Shown here one piece after another: positions 5,450 through 30,807 of a DNA stretch of 51,592 nucleotides; position 1 is the stretch's first letter, and each line of letters starts with the position of its first letter. The stretch lies in contig JAZDJU010000034.1 in the NCBI GenBank assembly GCA_043803685.1, forward strand, positions 1-51,592, read 5' to 3'. The notes under the pieces are model-generated. The model saw only the letters and a list, made by a program, of their open reading frames with translations. It did no database searches and had not been told where the DNA came from. A program made the position numbers and the translations under genes. Source of the DNA: Candidatus Omnitrophota bacterium (GTDB lineage: Bacteria > Omnitrophota > Omnitrophia > Omnitrophales > Aquincolibacteriaceae).

Positions 5450-5721
5450 GAATCCTGCTTATGTCGTTATCGTGATTAAATGCGTCGCAAGGTATGGCTT
5501 AAATGGATTCATCAATACCTGCTTAGTTTAAATTTGAAGAAATATTTTTTGATTAGGACGAGGTTCGCCGCGGAAGTATACTACCCAAATAGAGAGAGGG
5601 CTTTTGTGCGGCCTAGCAGTGAAGACGAATTTGAAATAGTTTAATTTTTTTTGAAAAGTAATCAGCTTCTTAAATAGTCCAGTTGCTTAAGAACAGAGAA
5701 GATGCGGGAAAAGAGGCTTTT

Positions 5722-8700: not shown

Positions 8701-9273
8701 TTGGTCATTGAATTGGCCAAACAAGGAAGTCCAGTCGATTTGGCAGAACATTATCATGAGGCTCTTTTGGACCATGCGCGAGATGTTATGGACGAAAAGA
8801 TTTATCCAAGCAAGTTGGTTGGTGAATGGAACTATGTTTTGCTGGCCTTAAAAGATGATTGGAAAGAAACTTTTTTGAAAAATATGAGGGATAAACTTCT
8901 TATTGAAGCTGAAAATCAGAAAAAAACTAAAATTTTGGAGTTGTATAGTGATGCGTATAAGGATAATCAATTTCTGGAAGATAAATCAGAAGATATCGTT
9001 AGACGAATGTTAACGCATATTGTTAAACGAAGTGATGGGAAAGAGCTCGCTACAATAGAAGGCTTTCTTAAGTTCAAGGCGGACCTTTTTAAGAAAGCTC
9101 CGAAAACAGTGCGAAGTATTTTCTCTGAAGTTCTCTGCGATGCCCTGCAGGGTTCGAAAGAATCTGCAGATGACAGCAAAGCGAGGTTGTCAAATATAGC
9201 CGCTTTATTAGGGATTCAAAAGTCCGGGAATCCAAAATCTTCAGATGAAAACGTGGCCCCTCCCGCGGCTTAG
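5722..9273 (+). CDS. KAP-family P-loop NTPase with two TM helices and a long helical C-terminus
   Basis: Walker A GTRGSGKS, FDAW, two TM segments inserted in the NTPase, Walker B VVVIDNLDR, FVEKTF and TPRDLK. ATG 5722 follows AAGAGG. AT-rich coding sequence. Confidence 0.85.
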   Translation: MSNDFRKTILLDDDPAELDYFESHQSIADAIDVLIQTEKGRKSIALIGTRGSGKSSIINFLSKIFNRNNHAKIFTFDAWSHSGDPLRRSFLEEFVKFLEKIHWVEKNEWQVALETLSRKREERDTKTEPILTLPGRLIIASTIFLPLGYALFGLIDKEVPVSKIVFGFTIQLWAFGLFMVFLPVIIVLLTWLCWRPTWKCFRKEFWTKHRAPHGADSLFSFFINKVRETNSVTTIRTPDPTTIEFQNVFKDILNDVLDLDDSRKNERKLVVVIDNLDRVDQSEAYSIWSTMRTFFDLWSGQTQKNWLEKFCLIVPFAPEFPKEVFDFDEAAVEPGNDKRQQDISKGGTGVSFVEKTFQAIFYVPLPVLSKWKDYLVAELGKAFPEHKQSKPDVFHQIYRIYDIAKVQKDGPPTPRDLKLFINKMGSRNRIWGNNIELAHQAIHVLYFDEMQKGRSFDLIKWSVIEKRILNMFDNEELQRNLAALHFNVKADIALQALAGGQVRAALQKGDKDSLKQLSENVTGFFTVLEREVTDNCMSWVEAEPNTIPMAAMAMGVFADRSAPEWNRIEDHLQSAASKVIEWRSVDEQVAEGLSIVIQRATAKGAESVLENLIDSISRTAPEQKSDQGKTVIPKPIELIKQHVKGLGRILKAFERTGQERLRGRFRIPGIERTYVQVLSCLGLESDANNVAQYFVPTADGAKVVEEFSRICNEGQFLDIHAQSIRMAIKIGPEWPWHNLIGPLHTRLQNTNNLTPVEITGCVLAFNYLVNSKVVQNAETSLEELCNQGHLFHHLAAVSNDAKGFASCLVPLTYYNPTGQLSIRRPVGNVASGLQEYRNALANPLSKKDAVDAFSNMLVDMNKLAEFLEKTQNVTEQHALVSHVFKATLSTENGYKNLPSTQLVKAYHCYRSRIDDALFEKHILNLVEKDSLMKVLGENVFENECASLYLEVIRAKDRCKEQVAFFIDFLLNGLRNVHADIWKKQLSSEGDILRLVIELAKQGSPVDLAEHYHEALLDHARDVMDEKIYPSKLVGEWNYVLLALKDDWKETFLKNMRDKLLIEAENQKKTKILELYSDAYKDNQFLEDKSEDIVRRMLTHIVKRSDGKELATIEGFLKFKADLFKKAPKTVRSIFSEVLCDALQGSKESADDSKARLSNIAALLGIQKSGNPKSSDENVAPPAA

Positions 9274-9326
9274 CCAACCAGCTGTAATGTCGTAATTTTC
9301 CTTAGGCGCGAGATTAATACGGCCAT

Positions 9327-9755
9327 ATGACTGAAATCGAATCTTATCTAGCATTATTAACAGGAACCCATCCCTCGATTCAATCTATTTGGCTAATTGG
9401 ATCAAGAGCTAATGGCGCATCAAATGTTAATTCCGATTGGGACTTGATTGTATTTGCAACGGAAGATATTTTACAAAATCTTCAGAGCTGTAGATCGATT
9501 CATGTGAGAGAAATAGATCTTCTCGTTGTCTATAATTGCAAAGGTGATTTTAAGAAACCGTGGGCTGAGCAGGACGGAAATTTCAAAACCGGCAATCTTG
9601 AAGATTGGGGTTGGCAGGAACAATCGGAAACAAAAGCTACGTATAGGCAACAATGGCGGAAAAAAGGGCCGACCACAGTTGATGGCTTTACTGAATTGGA
9701 TTATTGTGATGAAAGGTTAATAGCCCAAAAGGTATGGCCTCAACGAACCTGTTAG
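9327..9755 (+). CDS. Minimal nucleotidyltransferase (Pol-beta superfamily, MNT-like)
   Basis: IWLIGSRANG....SDWDLIV (GS + DxD) and a later IDLLV strand. Confidence 0.75.
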   Translation: MTEIESYLALLTGTHPSIQSIWLIGSRANGASNVNSDWDLIVFATEDILQNLQSCRSIHVREIDLLVVYNCKGDFKKPWAEQDGNFKTGNLEDWGWQEQSETKATYRQQWRKKGPTTVDGFTELDYCDERLIAQKVWPQRTC

Positions 9756-10132
9756 ATCTAAGCGCGTTTTACATAGTGTAATAATGGAATGTCGTTCTTT
9801 ACATAAAACATGAGATTCTTTTGTGAGTGATGAATGAGAAAAAAGAAGCGGAAAAGAGTGGGTGCGAAGAAAGGGGGGGATGCAACCTCCGAAGTTTCTC
9901 GGGACATTCGAGCCCTTCAGAAAGCAATATTAACTGAGGAGGAACGAAAAGGATGAAGCGTCAGATATCTGGGGCTGTCAATATCCATCCCAGGATTTCA
10001 TAATTTGCGTGCATTGCGAGATTGTTCCTATATAGACAGGTGACGACAGAATGGGGCCAGGGATGACCGACTGCCGTCTTTTGCGTCATTGATGTCTGAC
10101 TAAACTGCTTAAATGGAAAGTTCAAAGGAGGG

Positions 10133-10618
10133 ATGATGACGTCTATGGATTGTTCTACCATTGTCACTTCGTTGGTGACCAGCATCGGAGGAACCGGAGT
10201 TTTTATCCTTATTGTTGCGTTCTTTGGGAAAAGGTGGCTCGGTTCAAGAATCGAAGAAGCTATTAAACATGAGTATGGCAAGATGCTAGAAGAATTTAAA
10301 TTTTCTTTTCGACAGCGAGAGCAAGCGGCCGCGATCGCTAAGCTTTTTTCGAAGTGGATTAAATATAATGGGCTGGAGGATAAGTTATTGAAAGAAAGCG
10401 AAAAGCGGGATCATTTCGAAGAAATAAATAGGCTGAATTGGGAATTAGCGATTTGGATTCCTGATGAAGAAATTGTGAAAAAAATAAACGGAAAGCTTGC
10501 TAATAACAATGAAGAAGATATTAGAAGCTTAATTTTGGACGTGAGATCTCTTGTCTTGGGCAAGAAGTCTGATGGCATAAATGGAACTGAGCTGACCTAT
10601 TTTTCAGTAAAAAACTAG
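10133..10618 (+). CDS. Hypothetical protein with an N-terminal TM helix
   Basis: 161-aa ORF after RBS AAGGAGG, with hydrophobic segment GGTGVFILIVAFFG followed by a helical region. Confidence 0.7.
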   Translation: MMTSMDCSTIVTSLVTSIGGTGVFILIVAFFGKRWLGSRIEEAIKHEYGKMLEEFKFSFRQREQAAAIAKLFSKWIKYNGLEDKLLKESEKRDHFEEINRLNWELAIWIPDEEIVKKINGKLANNNEEDIRSLILDVRSLVLGKKSDGINGTELTYFSVKN

Positions 10619-10690
10619 CGCCGAAGTAGTAGTTCATTTGATGTAAAGTCACTTTTTGTGTGAAATGCGAAATTGTTCCTAAGGAAAGAC

Positions 10691-11281
10691 ATGAAAAAAC
10701 AAACGAATAAGATCTGTCAGTTCAGGATCGCGCTTCAGGATGTCAGTCCGCCAATCTGGAGGCGGATCCTTGTGCAAAGTGATATATCGCTTCACCGCCT
10801 CTCATCTACGATCCTGCTCGCGATGGGCTGGAGCGGGGGGCATTTGCATCAGTTTGAGATCAATGAGAAATCCTACGGGATACCTGATGACGATTTTGAT
10901 TCGGATGAGGACATGAACGATGAACGAGGCTTCCGGCTCGACGACTTGGATCAGGGGGCGCTGAAATCGTTCACCTTCGAATATGATTTCGGTGACGGGT
11001 GGCGACACGCGGTCCAGCTGGAGGATGTCTTGGAGCCAGCCAAGGGGCAAAAATATCCTCTTTGTATTAGCGGCGCCAGGAACTGTCCGCCGGATGATTG
11101 CGGCGGCACGGGAGGCTATGAGGAATTTCTCGCCGCAATCCGGAATCCCAAGCACCCGGAGCACAAATCCATGACCGAGTGGATCGGAGGTAGGTTTGAT
11201 CCCGAAGCGTTCAATTTGGATCAAGTGAACGGCGTTCTCCAGGATGTGGCGAAATCAGAGAAGCAGTGGTGGGGCTGTTAG
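10691..11281 (+). CDS. Plasmid pRiA4b ORF-3 family protein
   Basis: PPIWRRILV, HLHQF, FEYDFGDGWRH, G.RNCPPDDCGG..GY and FDPE.F signature motifs. Confidence 0.9.
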   Translation: MKKQTNKICQFRIALQDVSPPIWRRILVQSDISLHRLSSTILLAMGWSGGHLHQFEINEKSYGIPDDDFDSDEDMNDERGFRLDDLDQGALKSFTFEYDFGDGWRHAVQLEDVLEPAKGQKYPLCISGARNCPPDDCGGTGGYEEFLAAIRNPKHPEHKSMTEWIGGRFDPEAFNLDQVNGVLQDVAKSEKQWWGC

Positions 11282-11493
11282 AAAGATCGCGCACATCAAG
11301 CCGGGTCTTCCTGCGTTTTAACACTGGCGAGATTGAAAGCTGTCTGCAGGCTGTCACGGAGCAACGAGACCCCGAACGATGTTCGTGACAATTTATTTCT
11401 AGTATAAAAACGTTCGCAAACATTGAACGGACCCTTCTTAACTCCATGTCCCATGAGGGGCTATCTACTATATAGAAGGGAGCTATCCATGAA

Positions 11494-11712
11494 ATGAATA
11501 AGCAAGACGGTATTTCAAGGTGTGAAGTCTCGGGGAAGTTGCTGGATGTCGACGAATTGTCGCAGCGCCTTGGGGTTAAGGTTAAGACCGTGTATTGCTG
11601 GGTCCATGCCCGGCAAATACCCTATGTCAAAGTGGGGCGCTTGGTAAAATTTGATCCTCTGGATATCTCACAATGGGTGGAAAGCAGAAAAGTCAGGTCA
11701 ATCCGGGGTTGA
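11494..11712 (+). CDS. Excisionase-like HTH DNA-binding protein (HTH_17)
   Basis: LLDVDELSQRLGVKVKTVYCWV...IPYVKVGRLVKFDP; lies next to the integrase. Confidence 0.8.
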   Translation: MNKQDGISRCEVSGKLLDVDELSQRLGVKVKTVYCWVHARQIPYVKVGRLVKFDPLDISQWVESRKVRSIRG

Positions 11713-11737
11713 CAAGGTTTAACAATGTTGATAACCT
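11709..11737 (+). promoter_or_regulatory. Putative sigma70 promoter with overlapping dyad, upstream of the HTH-integrase genes
   Basis: TTGACA (11709) - 17 bp - TAACCT with a TG extension. The imperfect inverted repeat AGGTT-TAACA-A-TGTTG-AT-AACCT spans the spacer. Confidence 0.45.
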
Positions 11738-11758
11738 GTACCTGGCTTTGGGAACGAC

Positions 11759-11944
11759 ATGGAAAAAAATAAGCGATTCTATCTTGATGAGGTCGTCAAA
11801 ATGCTCGGGATACCGCGGAGCTCCTATTACAACTGGGAGCGTGCGGGGAAGATTCCTTTGCCGAAGCGTGATCCGATGAGTCATTATCGCTATTGGACGG
11901 AAGAAGACCTTCTGAAACTTAAGAAGGTCACGGGGAGAGGCTGA
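11759..11944 (+). CDS. MerR/AlpA-like small HTH protein (possible recombination directionality factor)
   Basis: EVVKMLGIPRSSYYNWERAGKIP.P.RDPMSHYRYWTEEDL, a MerR-type winged HTH. Confidence 0.8.
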   Translation: MEKNKRFYLDEVVKMLGIPRSSYYNWERAGKIPLPKRDPMSHYRYWTEEDLLKLKKVTGRG

Positions 11945-11945
11945 A

Positions 11946-13190
11946 ATGGGCGTTTTTCAAAAAAAATGCGGAGTTTGTGATGGGTGCCGGGAGGGTCGCG
12001 CCAAGTGTAAGGCGGGGACCTGGTATGTGGATTATTACGTTAACGGCCGTCGTCGCCGCGAAACTGCCCCCAATAAGGCGATGGCAGAGGACCTGTTGAG
12101 CAAACGCAAGATACAGATTAAAGAGAATAAGTATTTCGACATCAGGAAGGAAAGCCGCCTTACGTTTCGTGAGCTTTCAGAGAAGTATCTCAAACATTGC
12201 GAGCTGACCGGAAAAAAATCGTGGAAAAGCACTGATGTTGGCAACATGGAACATCTGGTCGATTATTTCGGGGCTATGCTCGTCAGTGAGATAAGCTCTG
12301 AAGATGTTGAGGTGTACAAGCAAAAGCGTTTGAAAGATGTGAAAATTTCGAAGAGGCGGAAAATCGAAATGCATGTGAAGCCCTCTACGATTAATCATGA
12401 ACTTTCCTGCATGCGAACCGCGATCAATAAAGCGATTTATGAATGGCGTGATCCCGAAAATAAGCGGCTTCCATTGTTTGCAGGTCCCAATCCCGCCGCA
12501 AGGTTTAAAAGACTCAGGGAAATTTCAAGAGACCGTTTTCTGACCAAGGGCGAATTGATAAAGCTTCTCGAGGTAAGTGATCCGGAGCTTCGCCAGTATA
12601 TCCTTGTGGCCGTAAACACGGGTATGCGAAAAGGGGAAATGCAGGGCATGACCCCTGCGGCTGTGAAGCTTGATTTAAATTACATTTTTCTTCCTGAAAC
12701 CAAGAACGGGGAAACGCGGTATGTGCCGACGAACGAAACCGTGAAGTCAATTCTCCGAGGTTCTTTTGATTTTTCATATAACCCGCGGAAGGCCTTTGCG
12801 ACTGCGCTGGGTCGCGCGGAGATTAAGGGCTTGCGCTTCCATGATCTCCGGCATACGTTTGCCAGTTATTTGGCGCACCTTGGGGTGGATCTTTATACGA
12901 TTTCTGTATTGCTTGGACATAAGACCAAGGGGGGCGTATACTCCATCACCGCTCGCTATACCCATTTGCAGCAGGACCATCTTTTGACGGCGGTTAAAAA
13001 ATTGGATACCTATTTGAGCGATGTTTTGCCTGGTTACAGAGAGGGTACATATAATGAAGGGCGGGGCGGATTCAAGACGAAGGAGCCTGGGACTGTTTGG
13101 GCGGTCAAGTACCGTCAATTACCCTCTAAGATGGACACTTTTTGGACACCTGGGCGAAAGCGTAAATCTCTAACTACTTTATTCAATTAG
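11946..13190 (+). CDS. int: Tyrosine recombinase / phage-type integrase
   Basis: Catalytic set intact: TGMRKGE (R), TKNG (K), HDLRH (HxxR), LGH and TARYTH (Y). N-terminal arm-binding beta strand WYVDYYVNGRRRRE and a core-binding domain. Confidence 0.95.
   Translation: MGVFQKKCGVCDGCREGRAKCKAGTWYVDYYVNGRRRRETAPNKAMAEDLLSKRKIQIKENKYFDIRKESRLTFRELSEKYLKHCELTGKKSWKSTDVGNMEHLVDYFGAMLVSEISSEDVEVYKQKRLKDVKISKRRKIEMHVKPSTINHELSCMRTAINKAIYEWRDPENKRLPLFAGPNPAARFKRLREISRDRFLTKGELIKLLEVSDPELRQYILVAVNTGMRKGEMQGMTPAAVKLDLNYIFLPETKNGETRYVPTNETVKSILRGSFDFSYNPRKAFATALGRAEIKGLRFHDLRHTFASYLAHLGVDLYTISVLLGHKTKGGVYSITARYTHLQQDHLLTAVKKLDTYLSDVLPGYREGTYNEGRGGFKTKEPGTVWAVKYRQLPSKMDTFWTPGRKRKSLTTLFN
13132..13149 (+). 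repeat. Tandem TGGACAC repeats, putative integrase arm-type binding sites
   Basis: TGGACAC at 13132 and 13143 (11-bp period), about 50 bp from the tRNA remnant. Confidence 0.45.
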
Positions 13191-13198
13191 GGATAAGG

Positions 13199-13255
13199 GG
13201 ATAGAGCATCAGCCTTCTAAGCAGGGGGTCCCGCGTTCTACTCGCGGCAGGCGCG
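13199..13255 (+). pseudogene. 5'-truncated tRNA-Arg(TCT) remnant, att junction of the island
   Basis: GGATAGAGC-A-TCAGC-CTTCTAA-GCAGG-GGGTC-CCGCG-TTCTACT-CGCGG-CAGGCGC-G gives the D-loop 3' half, anticodon TCT, T-arm and 3' acceptor strand. The 5' acceptor/D-stem strand is absent, the anticodon stem has an A-A mismatch and the T-loop is TTCTA. Confidence 0.8.
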
Positions 13256-13475
13256 TTTTTTCGTGATGTAAAGAAAAAACGTCCTTCCGTTTTTACCTGA
13301 AGCGTATTTGTCCGTGAAGCGAATCCGCTGAGGTTTAATTTTTTTGTTTTAATGCGTTCCCCGCCACAAAGCGCTGGCGGGTCTGTCCAACAGCGCTTTG
13401 CGGACGGGTCCGCCGCGCTGTTTGGCGGAGAATCGCGCCGGGGTCGTAGTTTCTTGAGGACATTTTAGTGGTGCG

Positions 13476-13512
13476 AAAAGCCCAAAGGGGGGGTGCCCCT
13501 TTGGGCTTTTTT
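13476..13512. terminator. Intrinsic (possibly bidirectional) terminator
   Basis: AAAAGCCCAAAGGGG-gggtg-CCCCTTTGGGCTTTT(TT), a perfect stem with A and T tails. Confidence 0.75.
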
Positions 13513-13648
13513 GTCTTATGTGGGGCGAAAAAATAATGTCCAATTGACTAAGTTTAGATGAAATTTCTATTGATAAATGAGTCATTTTTGTCTTAACCGT
13601 ATTGTTTTGAATGAGTTGCGTGATTTAAAAGATAATAACATAGCCATC

Positions 13649-13677
13649 TTGACAAAATTACAATCATTCGACATATT
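13649..13677 (+). promoter_or_regulatory. Putative sigma70 promoter of the large secreted protein
   Basis: TTGACA - 17 bp - CATATT in a very AT-rich intergenic region. Confidence 0.4.
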
Positions 13678-13861
13678 TTTACTGTATGAAGCGATTTAAT
13701 AAATCAAAACATAGCGTTTATATATGAATATAATTTTATGAAGAATAAATCTAAATATAAATTCTCATGGTTTGAAATTTCTAGGGAAGCGTGCTACGTT
13801 TCAGCAGTACGAATTAAGCATGTTTTAAAAGAATTTAGTTGTTAACGTATTGGGAGGCATG

Positions 13862-16800
13862 ATGCTTTCAGGTGGGAATCAAAAACAAGTTAGACGGATC
13901 GTAAGCTTCCTGACGATTTGTTTTTTTCTTGTTTCCCAGGTCTCATTTGCGAACCCTGGGGCAGGGATCGAGGTCGCTGCGAATCGGGAAATGCCCGGGT
14001 TCCTCAGGATCGATATTCCCACGGAGCTGGCAAGTCTTGATGGCATCTGGGAAGCGCCTTCTTCGGTCGATTCCAGGGTCGTCCTGCATATCCAGAATGC
14101 TCACGCCAATTATGGGGCCCAGAAGAAGATCGAAGAGCTTCTGGAGTATCTGAACAAAACTTATGCCATCAATACGATCTTTGTCGAAGGCGCGGCTGAG
14201 GACCTGAACCCCGACTACCTCAAACTCTTCCCTGACAAAGCGCGGAATCTGGAACTTGCGGATCTCCTGGCCCAGCAAGGCGAACTTACAGGCGCCGAAC
14301 TTTATCTTTTAGAAGCAGACTACGGACCACAGACCACAGACCCTAGACAAAAAAGGGATTCAAAGCTTCAGTCTCCAGTCTCCAGTCTCCAGTCTGGCCC
14401 CGTCAGGGGCGTGGGGATCGAGGACGCGGGACTTTACCGCAGTAACTACGAAGCTCTCAAGAAAGTCTTTGGCGCCGAGGCGCTTGTGAACCGTTACCTC
14501 CAGGGGTATGAATCCCGGCTTGAAGCGCTGTCCTCAAAGATCTTCACGAATGATCTCCGAAGAATTCTTGCGGATTGGCAGAAATTCGAGAAGGGACACC
14601 GCGAGTTCATGCCGTATATTCGCAGCCTTGCTGCCGATGCGAAGCGTGTCCTGGATCTCGATCTGGAAAGCCTGTTCTCACAAGTGGAATGGCCGCAGAT
14701 CACGCGCCTTCTTGTCCTTCAGGGGATGGAAAAAGAACTGGATACTGCCAAGGCATTGGAAGAGAAAGATAAGCTCATAAGCTTTTTGAAAGCCAAGGGC
14801 GTTTCCCCGCGAATCATTGCAGAAGTGGAGAATTTCAAGGAACAGCGTTTGAGCGTCCGCCAAGGCGAGGGCGAAATGATGGAACCTCGGGATGTCCTCG
14901 AAGCGCTTGTAAAGGAAGCCGGTCCCAACGGTTTCCGGTTCAGTGAGTATCCCGCGTTCAGCCTTTACGCCGGGTATCTGATCCTCAAAAGCGAACTGGA
15001 TGCCAAAGGGCTTTTTGAAGAGATCAAAGCGCTTTTCGGGAAGATCCTCGGCAAGCTTGCGGAAAGTCCGCAGCAGAAGAGCCTGCTGGAACTTTATCGC
15101 GACGAGGAACTCGCCCGGAAACTCTTGAGCCTCGAACTGAGCCGCCGGGATTGGAAGGATGCTCTCGGGCGTAAGACCGAGATCCAGATGGATTCGATGG
15201 TCTCCCGTCTCAAAGATCTTAGTAGCGCAGTCACAAAAGAAATGAATCTTGCACCCTCCGACCTCGAAACCAGGAAACTCAGCCCGAAATTTCAAGAGCA
15301 GATACTGGATCTTTATGGCTCGGCATTCAGCTTTTATGAGTTTGCCCGCCAGAGAGAATCCATGTTCTATGAGAAGATCAACGCGGTGATGGGGAAAGGC
15401 TCTTCAAGCAAAGCCGTCCTGATCACCGGAGGTTTCCACACCGACGGCATGACCGATCTTTTCCGCGAACATAACATCAGCTACGGTGTTCTTACCCCGC
15501 GCCTTATGGAAAAGAGCGACGAGAAACTCTACCGGAACACCATGCTGCAGAATGAAAAGCAGCTTTTCACGATCTCGTATTTGGAATTGGCGAACGGCGC
15601 CACCTCCCTTGCGACTCGAAAAGATCAGGGGTTTGACCCGTCAAAAGAGCTGGGCGATTTGATCAAGGCTTTTCGCAGCAAGCTTCCTAAAGAATATGCG
15701 ACGGGCCAGGGAGTTGCGGATGCTTTTAATGGTTCAATAGCGGCCAAGGCGTTTGGAATTACACTGGAATTCCAGCCCGAGAAGACATCTGAAACGACTG
15801 GCATCGATACCTATAAGGTCAAAGGTCTCCAAAAGTTCGAGGGCATCGAAGTTCCCGTCTCCCGCTCCGAGGCGCGAAGTTTGTTGGATATTTTTCAGCG
15901 GGGTATTGAAGCCAAAGTTAGTGCGTATTCGAACGGTTATCCGCTATCTCAATCAGCGTTTGATGAGGCTGCTGAGCGGACCCGTGTACTCATGCAAGCT
16001 GACTCGATTTCCGGTACGGTAGATGCCGTGGCGGCGAATTTTTTTACGAGCATCGATGGTTTAACTGATCCTGAGGACACCGCCCTTTTGAATGTCTTGT
16101 TAAAAACAGTTTTATTTGATGAGCAGGGACGTTTTCGCGAAGACCGCGATCGCCAGGCTCGAATCGCGAGTATTGTCTCTGAAGCTCGTCCGGGAGGGGC
16201 GTGGGCGATGCTTTCGAATGAGGCTAAACAGAAACCGTTAAGCCAAGTAGTGACACAAATGATCGGGTTGGTTCAGCCCATTATTAACACTCGCAAGGGA
16301 AAAGCAGGGGTCGATACAGGTCGGCTTGAAGCAGAAATCAGGTTTGCGGGCAATGTTTCTCGCCCATATGAAGTTGCTACCCTGGCTCAAGGGTTAGCCT
16401 CGGAACTCGGCCGTTTGAATTATCTAGCTACACCTGAGCAGACCGAGGCGATTCAAAATGTTGTTGATCAGTTGAAAAAAATTGAAGGCGAATATCGGCG
16501 CCGTTCGGAGGCGAGGTTGGGGGAATTGTACGGCTATATGATGCAGAAAGTGATGTTGCCGGCCGTGCTTGCCATGTGGCTTGCCGTGCCGTCCTTTGCT
16601 GCTGCCGAGAACAGCCAACCCTATAGCGTACGCCTTGATCCCACGATGGGGATGGAGGCCGGAGCTACAAATCTTTACTCGGCTTACAGGGGGCTGAATG
16701 AATTTGTGATCAATCCCGTGACCGCGCACATTCCTTATGTTGAAGATAACGCATTAGGTCGACTTGCTAAATGGGGCACCTTGGATAATATAACCGTAGG

Positions 16801-19800
16801 TTTCGTGGTCGCTCAACACGAGATCTTCGGTCATGGTGCAAGGTCACGAGGGGAAGGGGATTATGGTTCGACGTATGAAATTGAATTTGCCCCCCCCCGG
16901 CAATGGGAGGATTTAAAATGGAGCACGCTCGTGGGTTGGTGGTCGGGAGCTGCTGCGCGGGGCGACATGACGTATACGGTCGATGGATCTCTCGCAACAA
17001 CCGCCGGCGGAATGGAAAGTACCCAAGTGATGTCGGACGAGATCCGCAGAAGCGTGTACCGGAATGGCGGGACTTATCAGGATGGGCTGCTTTACTATCT
17101 TGCGAAACTTGACTTGTCTAATTACATCTTCAATACGTCCAACCCGGGTTCCCACCCAGGCCAACAGCTTTTAAATGGGGGGGGCGCTAGCAATGACGTC
17201 CAGAAGTATTATGAGAATATGGTTAAAAAGTATGGAGAAGATGCAGGGCTTTGGGAGGATATGCAGCGCGTGGCTCTCTGGAACGCGCTCGATCCCACGC
17301 TTTGGATGGCGTTGTGGGAGCAGTTGGATTATGTGGGGAGAGGCAACAAGGATTTCACATTGCCACGGATCCTGCCTTACACCGGGGCCAACCTTACGCC
17401 GCTCGGTCCGGAATATTATCTGGGGGCGAACTTCACTGCGGCCGAACTTTACTGGGACATTTATGGAAGACGAGGTGTCGGTCCATCCGGAGATTTCTAC
17501 GGAGTTGGGTTGCGTGTCGGAGATATCGATTTAGGCAATGGTTACTTTTTAGGGGTGAACCTGGATGGGTGGAAGCAGGAGGGCGAAGTCGGATATTCCG
17601 CAGAAGCGACGATCGGCCGGAATATTACCGATAATCTCAAAGTCGTTTTGGGTGCGGGCTATAAGACGGATGGCGATCTCAAAGGGCAACCCAGCGACGA
17701 AGGTCCGTCGGTATCCATAAAGTTCGAGGTTCCTTTTTCTAAACCTCGCTCCGAGGTGAGGGGGAAGGAGATCGAGGAACTTACGTCGAGTCTTGCCCGG
17801 CTTTCCCCTGAGGTTTTGGGATCGCTTGCCGAGATGTCGAAGCCGTCCTATAGTTTTTTAAGTGCGACACGGCAGAAGGAAAATACGGCCAAACATACTG
17901 CGCTGCTTGATATTTTGAAGAAGAATGGAGTGATCGTGCCCGAGGCGTTGGGGGCGCAATGGCCGGAACAGGGAAGAGGCATGGATGGGGCGTATGTGAC
18001 GGCACCTTTTCTGGAGATCGTCCGAAAGATCGTTACTGACACGATCGACGGACAAAGACTTGCCGAAAGGACGGCGTTTGTTAGGGGGCAGAACCGTCGC
18101 GTAGCACAGGTCCGTGGGCTTGCGGAAGGAGCTGTTTTAGCGCTCGAAAATGAGGAGCTCCGTGGGGGTTCCCTTCCTGGGCAAATGTATGGAACTGCTT
18201 ATACCCCAGCGGTGCCGTTTCCCGCGACGAGTCATTTTGATAAGTTTGAGGAGAGTGTTGCCGGGTTGCCGGCAGAAGTTCTCGCGGAGCTGGAACGATT
18301 ATCGAAAATAACGCCTGCTTCTGTGGAGGCTACGACAAAGAATCATGAGGGGATCCTGGCTCTTTTGGGACAGCAAGGTGTGATTGTACCCCTGGCGTTG
18401 GGCGTCGAATGGCCCAAGGATGATACGAGTGTTAGCGGGGATGGAGTGGACCGGAACGTTGCCGCGCCGTTGTTGGAGCGGATATGGATCGTTCTGGGAG
18501 ATAAAACCAAAGTAGCTAACGCAGTGCTCGAGAAGCAACGGTTTGAGAAAATCGCTGAAGATATCCGTGCCCGGAACCGTCGCGCGGCGCAGGTCCGTGG
18601 GCTTGAGGAGGGAGTAGCCCTCCGGCTCGGAGCGGAAGGAGCGGATTATCCGCAGTTTACGTCGAGTATGGCCGGGCTTTCCCCTGAGGTTTTGGGATCG
18701 CTTGCCGAGATGTCGAAGCAGTCCTATAGTTTTTTAAATGCGACACGGCAGAAAGAAAATACGGCCAAACATGCTGCGCTGCTGGGAGTTTTAGAGAAGA
18801 ATGGAGTGATCGTGCCCGAGGCGTTGGGGGCGCAATGGCCGGAACGTGGGAGAGATATGGATGGGGCGTATGTGACGGCGCCTTTTCTGAATTTCGTTCA
18901 AAAAGTTGTAAGCCAAAATGCTGCTGAACCGGCCGCCTCCCGTTCGGAAGCGAGGGTAACGGCTGTTCGTGAAGCAATCAACCAAGCCGATTTTTCGGTT
19001 GTCGGGGAAGCTAAGCTTGGGACGAATTTCGAGGCGGTTGGAAAGCTGGAGAGCCGGGGAGCGATAGGGTTCGTCATTGTTGCGGCCGTGGCTGGGATGG
19101 AGTTCGACAATAGGACGGATAAATTGAAGCCGGAGCAAATGGCTGACGTCATTGTGCAACTTGCAAGCGCGAGTGTAGCGAAGGCTGCGGGCTGGGTCCA
19201 GGCGATCCGGGATATTTTTGACGGGTTGGCTGCGAAGTTATTTCCAAAGACTGAAAAAGTTTCGATCATGGACAAGCCCGGCGTGGTGTTCGCTCAGCTA
19301 GGCAGGGAAGCTTTGAAAGATATTGGAGCGGGTGACCTAGCGCCATTGGGGAATAAATTTCAGGAGATGGTTTACATCGTACCTGTGCAGAATGAAGCGG
19401 GGAAAAAAGAGGTTCAGCCGCTTATCGATGAGGCCAAGGTTCGCTTGGCCGCTATTCTCAAAGATCTGGATGCGAATAAGCGATTTGACATTGTGCCGAT
19501 GGTGATTGATAAAAACAGATCGAGAACGGCGCGAGCGGCGCTCGCAAAACTCGCAAGTCAGAGAATGAAGACGATCGCGGCGGTTGCGCCCGGCCAGCGT
19601 AATTATGTTCTTATGGGTGCTGGTGAAGGGTTTTTGGATGTTTTTAACGAGGGGGGATTGCTGCCGGCAGTTATGATCAACGAAGGTTATAGCAAGGATG
19701 CCAACCGTCGTGTTGCAACCTCAACTCTCGCATCGATCGTGTCCCAGAGGCTCCTGAGCGCCAGTGAGGTTGATGCGATCAGGGAAGTTCTTAGTGGAAA

Positions 19801-19900
19801 GAAAGATGAAAAAGGCTTCTATTCGTTTAGTGCGGAAGCCCTGAATAAGATGCTGACGATCGCCATGCAGGTGGCTCAATCGATACAGTCCGCCGCATAA
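13862..19900 (+). CDS. Large (~2010 aa) secreted modular protein with RSE[AV]R-delimited modules
   Basis: Uninterrupted ORF (TTG 13850, ATG 13859/13862 after GGAGG). Sec-type signal peptide ending VSFA-N. N-terminal domain with HIQNAH, VEGA, GIED and TGGFH; four RSE[AV]R motifs; internal repeats. Confidence 0.85.
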   Translation: MLSGGNQKQVRRIVSFLTICFFLVSQVSFANPGAGIEVAANREMPGFLRIDIPTELASLDGIWEAPSSVDSRVVLHIQNAHANYGAQKKIEELLEYLNKTYAINTIFVEGAAEDLNPDYLKLFPDKARNLELADLLAQQGELTGAELYLLEADYGPQTTDPRQKRDSKLQSPVSSLQSGPVRGVGIEDAGLYRSNYEALKKVFGAEALVNRYLQGYESRLEALSSKIFTNDLRRILADWQKFEKGHREFMPYIRSLAADAKRVLDLDLESLFSQVEWPQITRLLVLQGMEKELDTAKALEEKDKLISFLKAKGVSPRIIAEVENFKEQRLSVRQGEGEMMEPRDVLEALVKEAGPNGFRFSEYPAFSLYAGYLILKSELDAKGLFEEIKALFGKILGKLAESPQQKSLLELYRDEELARKLLSLELSRRDWKDALGRKTEIQMDSMVSRLKDLSSAVTKEMNLAPSDLETRKLSPKFQEQILDLYGSAFSFYEFARQRESMFYEKINAVMGKGSSSKAVLITGGFHTDGMTDLFREHNISYGVLTPRLMEKSDEKLYRNTMLQNEKQLFTISYLELANGATSLATRKDQGFDPSKELGDLIKAFRSKLPKEYATGQGVADAFNGSIAAKAFGITLEFQPEKTSETTGIDTYKVKGLQKFEGIEVPVSRSEARSLLDIFQRGIEAKVSAYSNGYPLSQSAFDEAAERTRVLMQADSISGTVDAVAANFFTSIDGLTDPEDTALLNVLLKTVLFDEQGRFREDRDRQARIASIVSEARPGGAWAMLSNEAKQKPLSQVVTQMIGLVQPIINTRKGKAGVDTGRLEAEIRFAGNVSRPYEVATLAQGLASELGRLNYLATPEQTEAIQNVVDQLKKIEGEYRRRSEARLGELYGYMMQKVMLPAVLAMWLAVPSFAAAENSQPYSVRLDPTMGMEAGATNLYSAYRGLNEFVINPVTAHIPYVEDNALGRLAKWGTLDNITVGFVVAQHEIFGHGARSRGEGDYGSTYEIEFAPPRQWEDLKWSTLVGWWSGAAARGDMTYTVDGSLATTAGGMESTQVMSDEIRRSVYRNGGTYQDGLLYYLAKLDLSNYIFNTSNPGSHPGQQLLNGGGASNDVQKYYENMVKKYGEDAGLWEDMQRVALWNALDPTLWMALWEQLDYVGRGNKDFTLPRILPYTGANLTPLGPEYYLGANFTAAELYWDIYGRRGVGPSGDFYGVGLRVGDIDLGNGYFLGVNLDGWKQEGEVGYSAEATIGRNITDNLKVVLGAGYKTDGDLKGQPSDEGPSVSIKFEVPFSKPRSEVRGKEIEELTSSLARLSPEVLGSLAEMSKPSYSFLSATRQKENTAKHTALLDILKKNGVIVPEALGAQWPEQGRGMDGAYVTAPFLEIVRKIVTDTIDGQRLAERTAFVRGQNRRVAQVRGLAEGAVLALENEELRGGSLPGQMYGTAYTPAVPFPATSHFDKFEESVAGLPAEVLAELERLSKITPASVEATTKNHEGILALLGQQGVIVPLALGVEWPKDDTSVSGDGVDRNVAAPLLERIWIVLGDKTKVANAVLEKQRFEKIAEDIRARNRRAAQVRGLEEGVALRLGAEGADYPQFTSSMAGLSPEVLGSLAEMSKQSYSFLNATRQKENTAKHAALLGVLEKNGVIVPEALGAQWPERGRDMDGAYVTAPFLNFVQKVVSQNAAEPAASRSEARVTAVREAINQADFSVVGEAKLGTNFEAVGKLESRGAIGFVIVAAVAGMEFDNRTDKLKPEQMADVIVQLASASVAKAAGWVQAIRDIFDGLAAKLFPKTEKVSIMDKPGVVFAQLGREALKDIGAGDLAPLGNKFQEMVYIVPVQNEAGKKEVQPLIDEAKVRLAAILKDLDANKRFDIVPMVIDKNRSRTARAALAKLASQRMKTIAAVAPGQRNYVLMGAGEGFLDVFNEGGLLPAVMINEGYSKDANRRVATSTLASIVSQRLLSASEVDAIREVLSGKKDEKGFYSFSAEALNKMLTIAMQVAQSIQSAA
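14316..14396. repeat. Heptamer-periodic inverted repeat inserted in frame in the large gene
   Basis: CAGACTA CGGACCA CAGACCA CAGACCC TAGACAA ... CAGTCTC x3 CAGTCTG. Confidence 0.75.
17781..18889 (+). repeat. Intragenic direct repeats (~230 bp, 17781-18013 and 18657-18889) with a diverged middle copy
   Basis: Near-identical DNA at an 876-bp offset encoding LSPEVLGSLAEMSK...GVIVPEALGAQWPE...DGAYVTAPFL. A diverged protein-level copy lies near 18245-18480. Confidence 0.9.
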
Positions 19901-19956
19901 CGGTCATTGCTGTAGTTCCTACCGCATACCTAGAAGGTCGCTGTGTGACGGCCTCA

Positions 19957-19965
19957 TGCTATAAT
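19957..19965 (+). promoter_or_regulatory. Extended -10 promoter element upstream of rimO
   Basis: TGCTATAAT ending about 46 bp before the rimO ATG. Confidence 0.5.
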
Positions 19966-20011
19966 GCGCCCTGCTTAAGTTTCTAACTTCCTTTCTTCGA
20001 GGTTCGTACTC

Positions 20012-21349
20012 ATGGATGCAAAAGAGATCAAGGTCGGGATGGTTTCGCTGGGGTGTCCTAAGACGCTTGTGGATAGCGAGACCATTCTGGGGAAGGTCCG
20101 GGGCGCCGGCTATGCGATCGCGAAAGATATCGCGGAAAGTGATGTGGTGTTCCTGAACACCTGCGGGTTCATCCAGGACGCCAAACAGGAATCCATCGAT
20201 ACGCTTCTAAAGTTACTCGAGCTTAAGAAAGAAGGAAAACTGCTCGCGGTGGTTGCGGTGGGGTGTCTCGTCCAACGCTACGTGGAGGAGCTTCAAAAGG
20301 AATTTCCCGAGGTCGACGCCTTTATCGGTTCCGGGGACTACATGCGCATCGCCGAAGTCCTGAAAAAGGTCGCGGATGGAAAGCCATTCGTCAGTGTTCA
20401 TAATGCAGGTTATCTTGCCGACGCAGACGAGGCGCGCGTTTCCCTGACGCCCAAACATTCGCGGTATCTCAAGATCTCGGAAGGGTGCGATCACGTGTGC
20501 TCTTTTTGCGTGATCCCGAAACTTCGTGGACGCTATCGTTCGCGGCGCATCGCGGATCTTCTTCGTGAGGCGAAGCAATTGGCTGACGAGGGCGCGAAGG
20601 AACTTATCGTGATCGGTCAGGACATCACACGATTCGGGTGGGATTATGCCGGGAAATGTCTTTTACCGGAACTCATCGAGGCCTTGGGGACTGTGCGGGA
20701 TGTCAAGTGGGTGCGTCTTCTTTACACGTATCCCGCGACGCTCACCGACGAGATCATTCGCGCGATCGCGAAGTCCAAGCAGGTTTGCCGCTACATAGAC
20801 TTACCGCTCCAGCACATTAATGATAAAATACTCAAAGCCATGCAGCGGGGAGGCTCGAAACGGCAGGCGACCGAGCTGATCCGCAAGCTCCGGGAGATGA
20901 TCCCCGGTGTGGTGATCCGGACTAGTTTTATCGTGGGATTTCCGGGTGAGACGGAAGAAGATTTTGAAGAGCTCCTGGCTTTTATGAGCGAAATTAAATT
21001 CGATCGACTCGGGATCTTTCGCTACTCTCCGGAAGAAGGCTCGGCGGCCGCGGAACTTCCGGGACAGATCCCTGAAAAGATCAAAGAGGAACGCTATCAC
21101 CGGGCGATGCAGCTCCAGCAGACGGTCGCGCGGGAAGCGAATCGCCGTTATATCGGCCGGGAGTTCCGGGTGTTGGTTGAAACACAGGATCCGAAAGACT
21201 TTGGTTCATGGACCGGACGTTCTTCCATGGACGCACCCGAAGTGGATGGTGTTATTCATATCCGGACACAAAGGGACATCACGGCCGGGAAATTCTATAC
21301 GGTCAAGATCACGGACGCTCAAGACTATGACCTCGTGGGACAAATATAA
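20012..21349 (+). CDS. rimO: Ribosomal protein S12 methylthiotransferase
   Basis: SLGCPK..VDSE, NTCGFI..AKQES, radical SAM CDHVCSFC and C-terminal TRAM with APEVDG. Context next to pgsA/cinA. Confidence 0.9.
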   Translation: MDAKEIKVGMVSLGCPKTLVDSETILGKVRGAGYAIAKDIAESDVVFLNTCGFIQDAKQESIDTLLKLLELKKEGKLLAVVAVGCLVQRYVEELQKEFPEVDAFIGSGDYMRIAEVLKKVADGKPFVSVHNAGYLADADEARVSLTPKHSRYLKISEGCDHVCSFCVIPKLRGRYRSRRIADLLREAKQLADEGAKELIVIGQDITRFGWDYAGKCLLPELIEALGTVRDVKWVRLLYTYPATLTDEIIRAIAKSKQVCRYIDLPLQHINDKILKAMQRGGSKRQATELIRKLREMIPGVVIRTSFIVGFPGETEEDFEELLAFMSEIKFDRLGIFRYSPEEGSAAAELPGQIPEKIKEERYHRAMQLQQTVAREANRRYIGREFRVLVETQDPKDFGSWTGRSSMDAPEVDGVIHIRTQRDITAGKFYTVKITDAQDYDLVGQI

Positions 21350-22340
21350 ATATACGTTGCTGAATCCGAACGTGCTGAGTATCGCGCGCGGCTTGATCGG
21401 GCTCTCTCTGCCCTTCCTGATCCTGCGGCCGAGCCCGGTGGGACACCTTTGGGCGTTCATTCTCTTTATCGTGGGCGCGATCACGGATTACCTGGATGGC
21501 TGGATCGCCCGCCACTATAAACTCGAATCCGCTTTCGGGCGATGGGTCGATCCCTTTAATGACAAGATCCTGATCCTGGCGCCGATGGCCGCTTTCGCGG
21601 CGCTTCATTTTTACTCGATCTGGTGGGTGGTCCCGATCTTCATTCGCGAGATCCTGGTGACGTTCTGCCGGACCGGGTGGCTCCTGGGAGGGAACTCTTT
21701 GGGTGCGGAAATGATGGGCAAGCTCAAATTCGGTTTTCAGACCGTTACGGTGTGGATCGCTTTCGCTTATTTGCTTCTGAATCCGTATCCTTCTTTTGAT
21801 GTCGCGACGGGGATCTTTTATTATCTTCTGCCGATCCTCCTGATCACGACGGTGGCGTTAACGCTTGTCTCCGGCGCCATGTTCCTCTGGAACCAGCGGG
21901 CTCATTTCGGGGCCGAGCCGTTCAACCGGTTCGTGCTTGCGGTGGGTGTGGGACTCTTGCCGAAGGCCCCCGGGACTTGGGGAAGTATGCTGGGGGTTCT
22001 CCTGGTTTTTTTGACGCGATGGAACTTCGGACTTTACGCGGCCGCTTTTGTATTTCTACTCGCATGGGGCGCTCTCGCGTACGAACGGATCAAGGACCCG
22101 GACCCGGATCCTCACTACATCGTGGTCGACGAAGTATGCGGTATTTTTGTGACTTTCATGTTCATTCCCATGACCTGGATCTCCGCTCTTTTGGGGTTCT
22201 TGCTGTTCCGTTTTTTTGACGTGTTCAAACCTTTCCCGATCCGGGCCCTTGAACGCATTCCGCGTTACTGGGGCATTATGGCCGATGATCTTGGCGCCGG
22301 GCTCTGCAGCTGGATCATCCTCTTCGTACTCTTCCGATGA
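21327..22340 (+). CDS. Fused CDP-alcohol phosphatidyltransferase (PgsA-like) / phosphatidylglycerophosphatase A (PgpA)
   Basis: N-half: PN.LS..R, TDYLDGWIAR...S.FG..VDP..DK. C-half: PKAPGTWGS, DP..IVVDEVCG, FRFFDVFKPFPI and GIMADD. Confidence 0.85.
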   Translation: MTSWDKYKYTLLNPNVLSIARGLIGLSLPFLILRPSPVGHLWAFILFIVGAITDYLDGWIARHYKLESAFGRWVDPFNDKILILAPMAAFAALHFYSIWWVVPIFIREILVTFCRTGWLLGGNSLGAEMMGKLKFGFQTVTVWIAFAYLLLNPYPSFDVATGIFYYLLPILLITTVALTLVSGAMFLWNQRAHFGAEPFNRFVLAVGVGLLPKAPGTWGSMLGVLLVFLTRWNFGLYAAAFVFLLAWGALAYERIKDPDPDPHYIVVDEVCGIFVTFMFIPMTWISALLGFLLFRFFDVFKPFPIRALERIPRYWGIMADDLGAGLCSWIILFVLFR

Positions 22341-28893: not shown

Positions 28894-28896
28894 ATC

Positions 28897-30135
28897 ATGC
28901 CATCATTTGAATATTGGATCAAAGACAAGACGGGCAAAGATATCAAGGGCTTTCAGGACGCTCAGGACGTTCAGGACCTCGTTCATCAGTTGAAGGCCCA
29001 GGGTTATCTTGTCGTTCGCGTCGAGCAGACCAAAAAGGCTCCCTCCATTCTGAGCGTCCAAAAAGGGACGACTGCCAAGAAGGCTCAGGGGAAATCCGGG
29101 AACGTGAAGCTTGACGATCTCGTTATCTTTTCAAGGCAGATGGCCACGCTTGTCGCGTCGGGGATCCCCTTGATCCAGGCCCTGGACATTCTGGCGACGC
29201 AGGTGGATAAGGCGAAATTCAGGATGATCCTTCAAAAGATGCACGGGGATGTTCAAAGCGGTAAGAGCTTCTCCGAAGCCATGCAATTGCATCAGAAGAT
29301 CTTCTCGCCGCTCTTTATCCACATGGTCCGCGCGGGGGAAAGTAGCGGGAAACTTGAAGAGATCCTGGACCGGGTGGCCCACTATTTTGAAAAGTCGAGC
29401 GCCCTTCAGAAAAAGGTCAAGTCGGCCTTGATGTATCCCGCGGCGGTTTCGACCATGGCTTTCGCCATTACGTTCTTCATGCTTGCTTTTGTGATCCCCC
29501 AATTCGCGACGATCTTTGATGGCCTCGGGGCGAAACTGCCGGCGCCAACCCAGATATTGATCAATGTCAGCAATTTTCTTGCGGTCCATTGGTGGTGGAT
29601 CCTCGCTGTGCTGGGAGGCTTCATTTTTTTGTTCCGAAGGTTCGTTGCGTCTCCGATGGGCCGGCTGTCTTGGGATTCTTTCACGCTGCGCATGCCCATT
29701 TTTGGCCCCATCATTTTGAAGGTTGCGGTCAGCAAGTTCGCGCGCACGCTCTCCACCCTGGTGCGTAGCGGCGTGGCGATCATCGCGGCGTTAGAGATCG
29801 TTTCCAAAACATCGGGGAATGCCCGGATCGAAAAGATCATCACGGACCTTATGGGAGCTGTGAAGCGCGGGGAAAGCATCGCCGGACCTCTTGAAAGAAG
29901 CGATATTTTTCCTTCGATGGTCGTTCGCATGATCGCGATCGGGGAGGAGACCGGAGAGCTTGAGGAAATGCTAACGAAGATCGCGGATTTTTACGATACC
30001 CAGGTGGATTCCGCGATCTCTGGTCTTACGTCGCTGATCGAGCCCGTCATTATAGCCTTCCTGGGGATCGTGATCGGCGGTATTGTCATCGCCCTCTTCC
30101 TGCCCATTTTGACCCTAACCCAAGCGATCAAGTGA
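28897..30135 (+). CDS. pilC: Type IV pilus platform protein PilC (GspF family)
   Basis: FSRQMATLV.SG, AGESSG.L, SALMYP, IGEETGEL and LIEP.II. Confidence 0.92.
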   Translation: MPSFEYWIKDKTGKDIKGFQDAQDVQDLVHQLKAQGYLVVRVEQTKKAPSILSVQKGTTAKKAQGKSGNVKLDDLVIFSRQMATLVASGIPLIQALDILATQVDKAKFRMILQKMHGDVQSGKSFSEAMQLHQKIFSPLFIHMVRAGESSGKLEEILDRVAHYFEKSSALQKKVKSALMYPAAVSTMAFAITFFMLAFVIPQFATIFDGLGAKLPAPTQILINVSNFLAVHWWWILAVLGGFIFLFRRFVASPMGRLSWDSFTLRMPIFGPIILKVAVSKFARTLSTLVRSGVAIIAALEIVSKTSGNARIEKIITDLMGAVKRGESIAGPLERSDIFPSMVVRMIAIGEETGELEEMLTKIADFYDTQVDSAISGLTSLIEPVIIAFLGIVIGGIVIALFLPILTLTQAIK

Positions 30136-30777: not shown

Positions 30778-30807
30778 TTCGTAAGAAATACGAAAGTGTG
30801 TTTTTTG

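Follow-up and report, generated by a model that had tools for sequence, protein, structure and literature searches.

According to the available text of one account (PMC6254334), enzymes of the TIKI superfamily share a core of parallel sheet flanked by helices, with two histidines and two glutamates placed near the strands. In that text Tiki is said to be an endopeptidase with site specificity and to depend on metal, whereas RRSP and the Ere enzymes do not, and His-Glu pairs are given as H3902/E3930 for RRSP and H85/E113 for BcR135. Peptidases of the Tiki/TraB type found in loci for ribosomally synthesized and post-translationally modified peptides have been predicted to cleave leader peptides, in the portion of a second study that was available (PMC8939145). 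Here we describe a domain with a similar order of motifs in a 51,592-nucleotide stretch of DNA (the window) from a Candidatus Omnitrophota bacterium (GenBank assembly GCA_043803685.1, contig JAZDJU010000034.1). The domain heads a 2016-residue protein encoded by an open reading frame (ORF) at 13850..19900. The protein is made up of a hydrophobic leader, an N-terminal module (the N-domain) and four or five cargo segments split by the motif (R/V)SE[AV]R. Coordinates refer to the window, the gene lies on its forward strand, and residues are counted from the TTG codon with which the ORF is listed. Judged from its motifs and its predicted model, the N-domain is most likely a divergent hydrolase of the TIKI/Ere type that carries a helical lobe both large and conserved.

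The leader and polyprotein proteases of viruses, as well as autoprocessing toxins such as MARTX, combine a protease module within the chain, short junction motifs between folding modules, and variable cargo, and by analogy the same combination may exist here. The N-domain family differs from these systems in being chromosomal, in having several paralogues per genome, and in its fold and motif; processing in this family is a proposal. In MARTX it is a separate cysteine protease domain that processes the chain. The RRSP effector of MARTX is comparable to the N-domain in other respects: it carries its two His and two Glu on strand ends, is a site-specific endopeptidase that depends for its activity on an appended helical lobe, and resides in a multi-domain autoprocessed protein, as stated in the available text (PMC6254334). 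RRSP is, however, a cargo that cleaves host Ras, and it gives no sequence match to the N-domain. Within the same phylum, a preprint (West-Roberts et al. 2023) describes giant Omnitrophota proteins, which are very long, combine several enzymes, bear signal peptides, and have been proposed to be cleaved into products. The available part of that preprint states that at the N-terminus these proteins 'generally lack identifiable domains', with C39 and S8 peptidases as the exceptions, and gives the cleavage points as unknown. No mention of the N-domain or the linker motif was found in the main texts, so far as available, of the 2023 and 2026 Omnitrophota preprints, whose supplements may bear on novelty; the available text of the 2026 complete-genome preprint contains none of the terms 'cleav', 'polyprotein', 'TraB' and 'erythromycin'. 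Among the papers listed by literature searches that combined Omnitrophota with polyprotein, or with giant and protease, none was on the N-domain.

The N-domain comprises residues 36-672 (13955..15865), as supported by the conservation profile, the AlphaFold2 (AF2) model and a scan of cluster representatives. The conservation profile places its conserved part at residues ~45-575 and shows residues 576-672 to be a poorly conserved, variable tail; residues 158-185 are an insert peculiar to this protein. The initial annotation had noted a TIKI/TraB/ChaN/EreA-like order of motifs, and all five motifs are present where it had placed them. VLHIQNAH (residues 78-85, nucleotides 14081-14104, with the H80 codon at 14087 and the H85 codon at 14102) comprises most of strand b1 (77-82) and ends in the invariant H85, the strand and His together spanning 14078..14104. 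IFVEGA (110-115) contains the end of strand b2 (109-112) followed by the invariant pair E113-G114, strand and pair spanning 14174..14191, and VGIED (188-192) in the same way contains the end of strand b3 (186-189), with both G189 and E191 invariant (14405..14422). Beyond a long helical insertion lie RQRESMF (500-506, 15347..15367), in which the alignments single out R502, Glu or Asp at 503, and F506, and then AVLITGGFHTDG (residues 522-533), in which strand b4 (521-526) leads into the invariant G527-G528-F529-H530 (15410..15448, with the H530 codon at 15437). The final core strand, b5, is predicted by AF2 at residues 544-550 (15479..15499).

Conservation of these residues is far above chance. 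In an alignment of 67 sequences with 23-55% identity, H85, E113, G114, G189, E191, E391, R502, G527, G528 and H530 were the same in all 67. In an alignment of 163 N-domains, down to ~29% identity, E113, E191, R502 and H530 were present in every one and H85 in 162, the remaining sequence having a gap. Three further residues that had been read as parts of the motifs did not hold up in the 67-sequence alignment: H80 is replaced by Tyr in five sequences and by Gln in two (His in 60), M505 is not conserved (Val in 28, Ala in 21, others in the rest), and D192 is variable. F506, next to M505, is kept in 60 of the 67. The residues that precede H85 are Q-(N/D)-A rather than G/E-x, and the gap from H85 to E113 is 28 residues.

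The long helical insertion proposed earlier is borne out by the AF2 model, in which helices span residues 193-516 (14426..15397). It holds some of the best conserved residues of the whole N-domain, namely W281 together with Q278, R286, R347, E382 and E391, the last five of which were scored as invariant, and its best conserved stretch is EWPQITR (280-286, 14687..14707). Judged by the alignments, the insertion is thus not a variable spacer.

The AF2 model built on the 67-sequence alignment had a mean predicted local distance difference test score (pLDDT) of 86.1 and a predicted template modelling score of 0.86, compared with a pLDDT of 37 for a model built from the single sequence. In blocks of 10 residues around H85, E113, E191, R502 and H530, pLDDT was 93-97. 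The order of elements in the model is b1 and H85, a helix (88-105), b2 and E113, short helices, b3 and E191, the helical lobe (193-516), b4 and GGFH530, a helix, and b5; the lobe, of ~320 residues, thus splits a beta-alpha-beta core. H85 lies three residues past strand 77-82 and E113 directly after strand 109-112, and each catalytic-type His or Glu is found just beyond the C-terminal end of a strand in a beta-alpha-beta unit. R502 sits in the final long helix of the lobe (479-516). The five core strands are joined by helices as beta-alpha-beta units, which would imply a parallel sheet. The model therefore places a His after the first strand, a Glu at the end of the second, an Arg-bearing helix before GxxH, and GxxH itself after a late strand, as predicted for a TIKI-type domain. 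An Arg-bearing helix and GxxH are reportedly among the defining motifs of the superfamily.

The nearest parallel to this arrangement is the TIKI/TraB/PrgY/GumN family (PF01963), which includes YbaP and vertebrate Tiki1 and has the same motif order: strand-xxH, strand-E, strand-E, helix R, strand-GxxH. The YbaP motifs are GSIH, IVEAD, IELEG, QRN and GALH, at spacings comparable to those of the N-domain. There are also clear differences: the N-domain has ~320 conserved helical residues between the third motif and the Arg, where YbaP has ~70; its first motif is (N/D)-A-H, where the TraB family has G-T/S-x-H; it heads polyprotein-like chains, unlike the TraB family; and it shows no significant profile similarity to that family and no match to PF01963. 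The Ere family is said to carry a large helical part. For this family, which includes BcR135 and BcR136 (3B55, 2RAD), the text available gives a His-Glu pair in BcR135 that is 28 residues apart, exactly as in RRSP and in the N-domain, the identical numbers H85 and E113 being a coincidence. The Ere enzymes differ from the N-domain in being standalone esterases with a GExH motif. Taken together, motifs and predicted topology fit the TIKI/Ere pattern well, while membership is statistically unestablished.

The motif that separates the modules occurs five times in the protein. RSEAR at residues 672-676 (15863..15877) marks the boundary between the N-terminal module and the cargo; a relaxed form, VSEAR, follows at 776-780 (16175..16189), then RSEAR at 885-889 (16502..16516), RSEVR at 1300-1304 (17747..17761), and RSEAR at 1698-1702 (18941..18955), ahead of the C-terminal module. 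RSExR was counted 520 times in 408,503 amino acids, compared with a mean of 8.85 and a maximum of 18 in 20 shuffles; RAExR occurred 218 times (13.0 in shuffled sequence) and RPExR 32 times (7.2). The residues seen at position x of RSExR are V, A, L, M, S, T and I.

These sites are concentrated in N-domain proteins. Within the same loci 84 N-domain ORFs had 1.95 sites per 1000 amino acids, compared with 0.139 for the 664 remaining 5'-complete ORFs, a set that includes non-coding shadow ORFs, which is a difference of ~14-fold. Even among the other ORFs, 23 of the 34 sites fell in six ORFs adjoining N-domain genes. The N-domain itself is spared: there were 0.167 sites per 1000 amino acids before the catalytic-type His and 2.39 after it, and the median distance from the His to the first site is 156 residues (142 in the protein described here). 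In seven relatives whose cargo is annotated by Pfam, 79 of 80 sites lay outside the best Pfam stretches, a coarse test that takes account of the best stretches only. Sites often bracket domains, as with an HPr domain at 1103-1182 that is preceded by a site at 1086 and followed by one at 1218, and likewise with Methyltransf_4 and Pyr_redox domains. Hydrophobic, signal-like 17-mers were found within 45 residues after 14.4% of 721 sites, compared with 3.6% upstream and 5.4% at random positions, so that transmembrane or signal-like segments are enriched ~3-fold just downstream of sites. The initial annotation had suggested that the N-domain could be the metallopeptidase that cuts at RSE[AV]R. The association of domain and sites holds throughout the family; cleavage itself, and the identity of the enzyme, we infer.

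The codons of the motif are not chosen at random. Among 236 RSExR sites the first Arg is encoded by CGC or CGT in 189 (80%; background 44%) and the Ser by TCC in 133 (56%; background 22%), while RSE not followed by xR (n=68) and RS not followed by E (n=523) have background codon usage. Ala at position 2 favours GCC, and the codons for Ser, Ala and Pro at this position are single-base neighbours (NCC). The sites in the window read CGC-TCC or CGT-TCG. The last Arg uses all six Arg codons at near-background frequencies, and the Glu uses both GAA and GAG. An internal Shine-Dalgarno sequence and start codon within RSE(V/M/L)R was ruled out, because with CGY for the first Arg and TCC for the Ser no GGAG is formed.

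A second class of motif was found when the 107 family proteins of at least 1200 amino acids were classed by R[SAP]ExR and [AGS][AS]SLG. At least two R[SAP]ExR and fewer than two [AGS][AS]SLG were present in 94, the reverse held for eight, none had both and five had neither. The eight proteins of the second class (P0138, P0139, P0148, P0153, P0162, P0164, P0173 and P0179) contain no R[SAP]ExR and have instead the repeat (Q)-[AG]-[AS]-S-L-G-x-(E). Both classes retain the catalytic-type residues. In the 163-sequence alignment, seven N-domains of the SLG class differ from the others at W281, which becomes Tyr or Phe, at Q283, which becomes Ser or Ala (both in the EWPQ motif), and at F362; in the RxExR class these positions are conserved at 99%, 90% and 94%, respectively. 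Recognition of the linker motif by the helical lobe would lead one to expect such differences.

The N-domain represents a new family that has no annotation. In a word-indexed search its 637 residues (36-672) had 52 relatives, and those with names were from Candidatus Omnitrophota, bar one record labelled Verrucomicrobiae. An exhaustive HMMER scan of 1.84 billion cluster representatives gave 6720 matches at E<=1e-3, 4066 at E<=1e-10 and 761 at E<=1e-30, and the 150 relatives listed range in length from ~200 to 7498 amino acids. From 424 loci confirmed in a genome scan, 76 were kept (L001-L076); every taxon-named record among them is an Omnitrophota metagenome-assembled genome, and several paralogues occur per genome. 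A hidden Markov model made from 72 N-domains matched all 180 family proteins, starting no more than 98 residues from the N-terminus and never in two copies. This constant position at the head of motif-punctuated chains makes the N-domain the best candidate for the processing enzyme.

At one locus (L011) a 1073-residue N-domain ORF (9923-13144) without a strict site overlaps the next ORF by 22 nucleotides in another frame, and this second ORF (13123-21840) encodes at least 2906 amino acids with four sites. The arrangement may reflect either a split gene, a frameshift, or action in trans; similarly broken arrangements were seen at L007 and L025. Synteny around family members is conserved: in 86 flanking ORFs scanned at loci L003-L056, the upstream neighbours included 23 UvrD-type helicases and eight MgsA proteins, and the downstream neighbours four M48 membrane peptidases (L005, L009, L014 and L033) and five acyltransferases. 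A dedicated neighbouring protease was rejected, as no protease was constant among these 86 ORFs.

Cargo differs greatly between family members. In blastp searches (E<=1e-5) segments 677-885, 890-1300 and 1305-1698 had no homologue in the other 179 family proteins, and the variable tail of the N-domain matched two close relatives. The C-terminal module (residues 1703-2016, 18956-19897) shares 55% identity with the final ~300 residues of P0057, a protein of 6270 amino acids, and is the sole cargo module common to another member among the 179. Relatives carry WD40, DUF218, methyltransferase, Pyr_redox, HEAT/TPR, nucleotidyltransferase, HPr and PGM domains. PDB searches with cargo 890-1300 and 1703-2016 returned nothing, and Pfam did not match the third segment (residues 890-1300, 16517-17749). 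This segment starts, just after RSEAR 885-889, with a signal-peptide-like stretch (901-919) that ends ...SFAAA|E; it contains HEIFGH (990-995), a zincin-like HExxH motif, and ends ...KFEVPF four residues ahead of RSEVR 1300, an end that we take to resemble the C-terminus of an outer-membrane beta-barrel protein. As one segment has an outer-membrane-like ...F end and another a signal-like start, the segments may become separate mature proteins. By eye, the fourth segment (residues 1305-1698, 17762-18940) contains a unit of ~90 residues repeated three times, beginning ...LSPEVLGSLAEMSK...; a blastp self-comparison did not report the repeat.

We propose, tentatively and in the knowledge that it may well prove wrong, that the N-domain is a divergent TIKI-like His/Glu hydrolase that acts as a polyprotein leader protease. 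Residues ~45-575 would form the hydrolase, with a beta-alpha-beta core, split by the helical lobe, in which the five residues would converge on one site of the TIKI/TraB/Ere type (His/Glu/Glu/Arg/His). As the obligatory first module of polyprotein-like chains in Omnitrophota, it would be a leader endopeptidase that recognizes the linker R-[S/A/P]-E-x-R, represented here by RSEAR or RSEVR at 672, 885, 1300 and 1698 and by the relaxed VSEAR at 776. The N-domain would free itself at the first site, and the downstream cargo modules would be separated in cis and possibly in trans. Two features expected of a polyprotein were found: a candidate protease module on the chain that bears the sites, and a short motif that recurs at module boundaries. 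The initial annotation had also allowed that the domain could be a degenerate ligand-binding chassis; this is unlikely, because the His/Glu/Arg set is invariant.

Several results weigh against this proposal, some of which concern homology. Pfam and NCBIfam recognized no part of the whole protein, and at the gathering threshold they gave nothing for pieces of the core or for 40 and 72 relatives, so that PF01963, PF04187, PF05139 and PF18950, the families of the superfamily, were all without a match at that level. Sequence and profile searches of the PDB (phmmer and hmmsearch, with the protein and profiles A1, A3 and A4) found nothing relevant. When the whole model was compared by Foldseek with 350,542 PDB chains, there were zero matches at E<=0.001, and the top ranks were filled by long helical proteins, the 320-residue helical lobe dominating the query. 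BcR135, the best of the Ere family, ranked 24 (2rad_A, E=0.83, 208 columns) and 33 (3b55, E=1.2), with a template modelling score of ~0.15 and a root mean square deviation of ~16 A, which is not significant; its chains were the only enzyme-like PDB entries among the best 50 matches (~200 aligned columns). Foldseek against BFVD gave no significant match, and in the ESM Atlas the whole domain and residues 20-165 matched only unnamed Omnitrophota clusters. When the trimmed family profile was aligned by hhalign with E. coli YbaP and the TraB family, P was at least 0.1, which is not significant. Against 98 YbaP-like TraB proteins the probability was below 1%, with a template profile that is narrow (Neff, the effective number of sequences, 2.3) and hence poor, as the set contains close enterobacterial relatives only. 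One local hhalign alignment, likewise not significant, placed R502 and GGFH in register with the Arg and GALH of YbaP.

A Pfam scan of 71 N-domains from the loci gave 19 matches at E<=0.05. One was to PF04187, which Pfam names 'Haem-binding uptake, Tiki superfamily, ChaN' (E=0.028, 14.8 bits against a gathering score of 27.7), between residues 338-425 of L073 and positions 126-204 of the 213 in the profile. Another was to PF18950, DUF5694 (E=0.022, 15.6 bits against a gathering score of 27.5), between residues 436-476 of L066 and positions 134-173 of 185. Both matches are below threshold, and in both the R...GGFH region is paired with the co-linear end of the profile. ChaN is not an enzyme but a lipoprotein that binds haem, and DUF5694 is, we believe, in the same clan, although YbaP and three relatives gave no cross-match that would confirm it. 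In the same type of search, 11 of 72 N-domains weakly matched PF18185 STALD, one of the SLOG families, across the second strand, and even the best of these matches (E=0.0016) fell short of the gathering score; the matched stretch corresponds to residues ~94-129 of the present protein (14123-14230), and the similarity is probably of the generic Rossmann-like strand-Gly kind. The suggested likeness to TIKI/TraB/ChaN/EreA proteins is thus upheld in motif order and strand placement and not in significant similarity of sequence or fold, and homology to TIKI/Ere is what we infer.

Other objections concern the residues, the compartment and the sites. Immediately before the first His stands N/D-A, where Glu or Gly is usual. 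A Kyte-Doolittle scan placed the hydrophobic leader at residues 17-35 (13898..13954); it has K/R/R on its N-terminal side, ends SFA|N, and would be a signal peptide or signal anchor. By its sequence it looks like a Sec signal, which would place the N-domain in the periplasm, and some relatives have cargo that is typically cytoplasmic (HPr, PGM, Pyr_redox). The third segment has a signal-like start of its own, and a cut in the cytoplasm would therefore be needed for this to function. About nine complete relatives of ~1000 amino acids carry none or one strict motif, so that the domain can exist without multiple sites in cis; some relatives of this length bear relaxed K/V-SE-x-R forms just after the domain. 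The CGY-TCC bias may hint at a constraint at the nucleotide level or at shared descent of the junctions, which a pure protease-site model does not predict. The residues that set the SLG class apart were seen in seven proteins, perhaps of one clade, and cannot show co-evolution.

In a rival reading the N-domain would be an active periplasmic hydrolase, TIKI/Ere-like or other, with a different substrate such as a peptide, an ester or an envelope component, the linkers being cut by another protease or left uncut and the domain merely carrying the export signal. The leader resembles a signal peptide, many known members of the TIKI superfamily are extracytoplasmic, and the ~1000-residue relatives are complete with at most one motif. 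An M48 membrane peptidase lies downstream in four of the 86 flanking ORFs, and ester hydrolysis by an active site of this kind is known from the Ere family, in the text available (PMC6254334). We consider this reading unlikely, if worth keeping in mind. No protease is constant among the flanking ORFs scanned, and in the window none adjoins the gene; the reading also leaves unexplained why every motif-bearing chain begins with its own copy of the N-domain (180 of 180), why the motif is nearly confined to N-domain ORFs, and why the class of motif tracks the subtype of N-domain. In another reading, which the codon data favour, R[SA]ExR would be no protease site but a signature of linkers or junctions that is maintained in the nucleotide sequence, either a junction of recombination and module shuffling or a signal in the mRNA, with the chain intact and the N-domain an enzymatic or anchoring head. 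Codon choice at the first Arg and Ser is specific to the motif, the three residues allowed at position 2 are a single base apart, and cargo is shuffled between relatives. Such a signature seems distinctly improbable to us, in that the amino-acid pattern is held across differing codons for the last Arg and the Glu, signal-like segments are enriched right after sites, and an outer-membrane-like segment end precedes one site while another segment has a signal-like start.

The failure of Foldseek and hhalign to reach significance, with the weak STALD matches over the b2 region in 11 of 72 N-domains, is what would be seen if the core were an unrelated Rossmann-like or SLOG-like alpha/beta fold whose TIKI-like motif order is convergent or coincidental and whose chemistry is perhaps non-hydrolytic. 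The STALD matches, however, span just ~30-65 of 211 profile positions around one strand, five separate invariant residues occur in TIKI order with TIKI-like spacing, and the sub-threshold matches over the C-terminal motifs are to ChaN and DUF5694 only; we rate an unrelated fold as more doubtful again. The third segment offers a zincin-like motif inside the same chain, and its HEIFGH (990-995) could in principle belong to the protease responsible for processing the chain. The segment matches nothing in Pfam or the PDB and has no homologue in the other 179 proteins, which carry the same linker motif, and we consider such a role very improbable indeed. As a general processing protease the segment was rejected because it is not shared with relatives.

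The gene itself, listed from TTG, has GGGAGG and a pair of ATG codons at 13859 and 13862 shortly after this codon, and the ATG pair is more likely to be the true start. The window is a segment of bacterial chromosome in which every gene lies on one strand. Downstream of the polyprotein gene are a MiaB-like enzyme, phospholipid genes and a type IV pilus cluster; the last, resembling a type II secretion system and on the same strand as the polyprotein gene, occupies 25433-35346 and includes two PilB-type ATPases, PilC, a prepilin, PilM, PilO and a secretin. Upstream, ~5683-13190 has a GC content of 0.40-0.47 compared with ~0.53 and encodes a 1196-residue KAP-family P-loop NTPase, a PRiA4_ORF3 protein and a tyrosine integrase. 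This stretch probably represents an integrated element that ends just upstream of the polyprotein gene. With an integrase upstream and a MiaB-like gene downstream, the context of this copy differs from that of its relatives. Within the window no tRNA, no second copy of the N-domain and no protease gene adjacent to the ORF were found.

Whether the very long proteins of Omnitrophota act as single chains or as cut products is an explicit open question in the field. The leader-protease proposal brings to it an invariant candidate active site (H85, E113, E191, R502 and H530) in a domain found at the head of every member of a family with over 6,700 cluster representatives, R[SAP]ExR as a candidate code for cleavage, with [AG][AS]SLG as an alternative class, and a map of boundaries at which giant proteins could be split in silico for structure prediction and annotation. 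A broader version, which we put forward with greater reserve than the proposal for the domain itself, is that chromosomal polyproteins exist throughout the phylum, each gene being the equivalent of an operon headed by a TIKI-like leader protease that would cut R-[S/A/P]-E-x-R, or [AG][AS]SLG in one lineage, and so release enzymes and secreted and outer-membrane proteins with targeting signals of their own; for the first time, the giant proteins of bacteria would then have a defined protease and cleavage code. If confirmed, the leader-protease proposal would extend the TIKI/Ere fold to polyprotein processing and would amount to a virus-like strategy of gene expression in cellular genomes.

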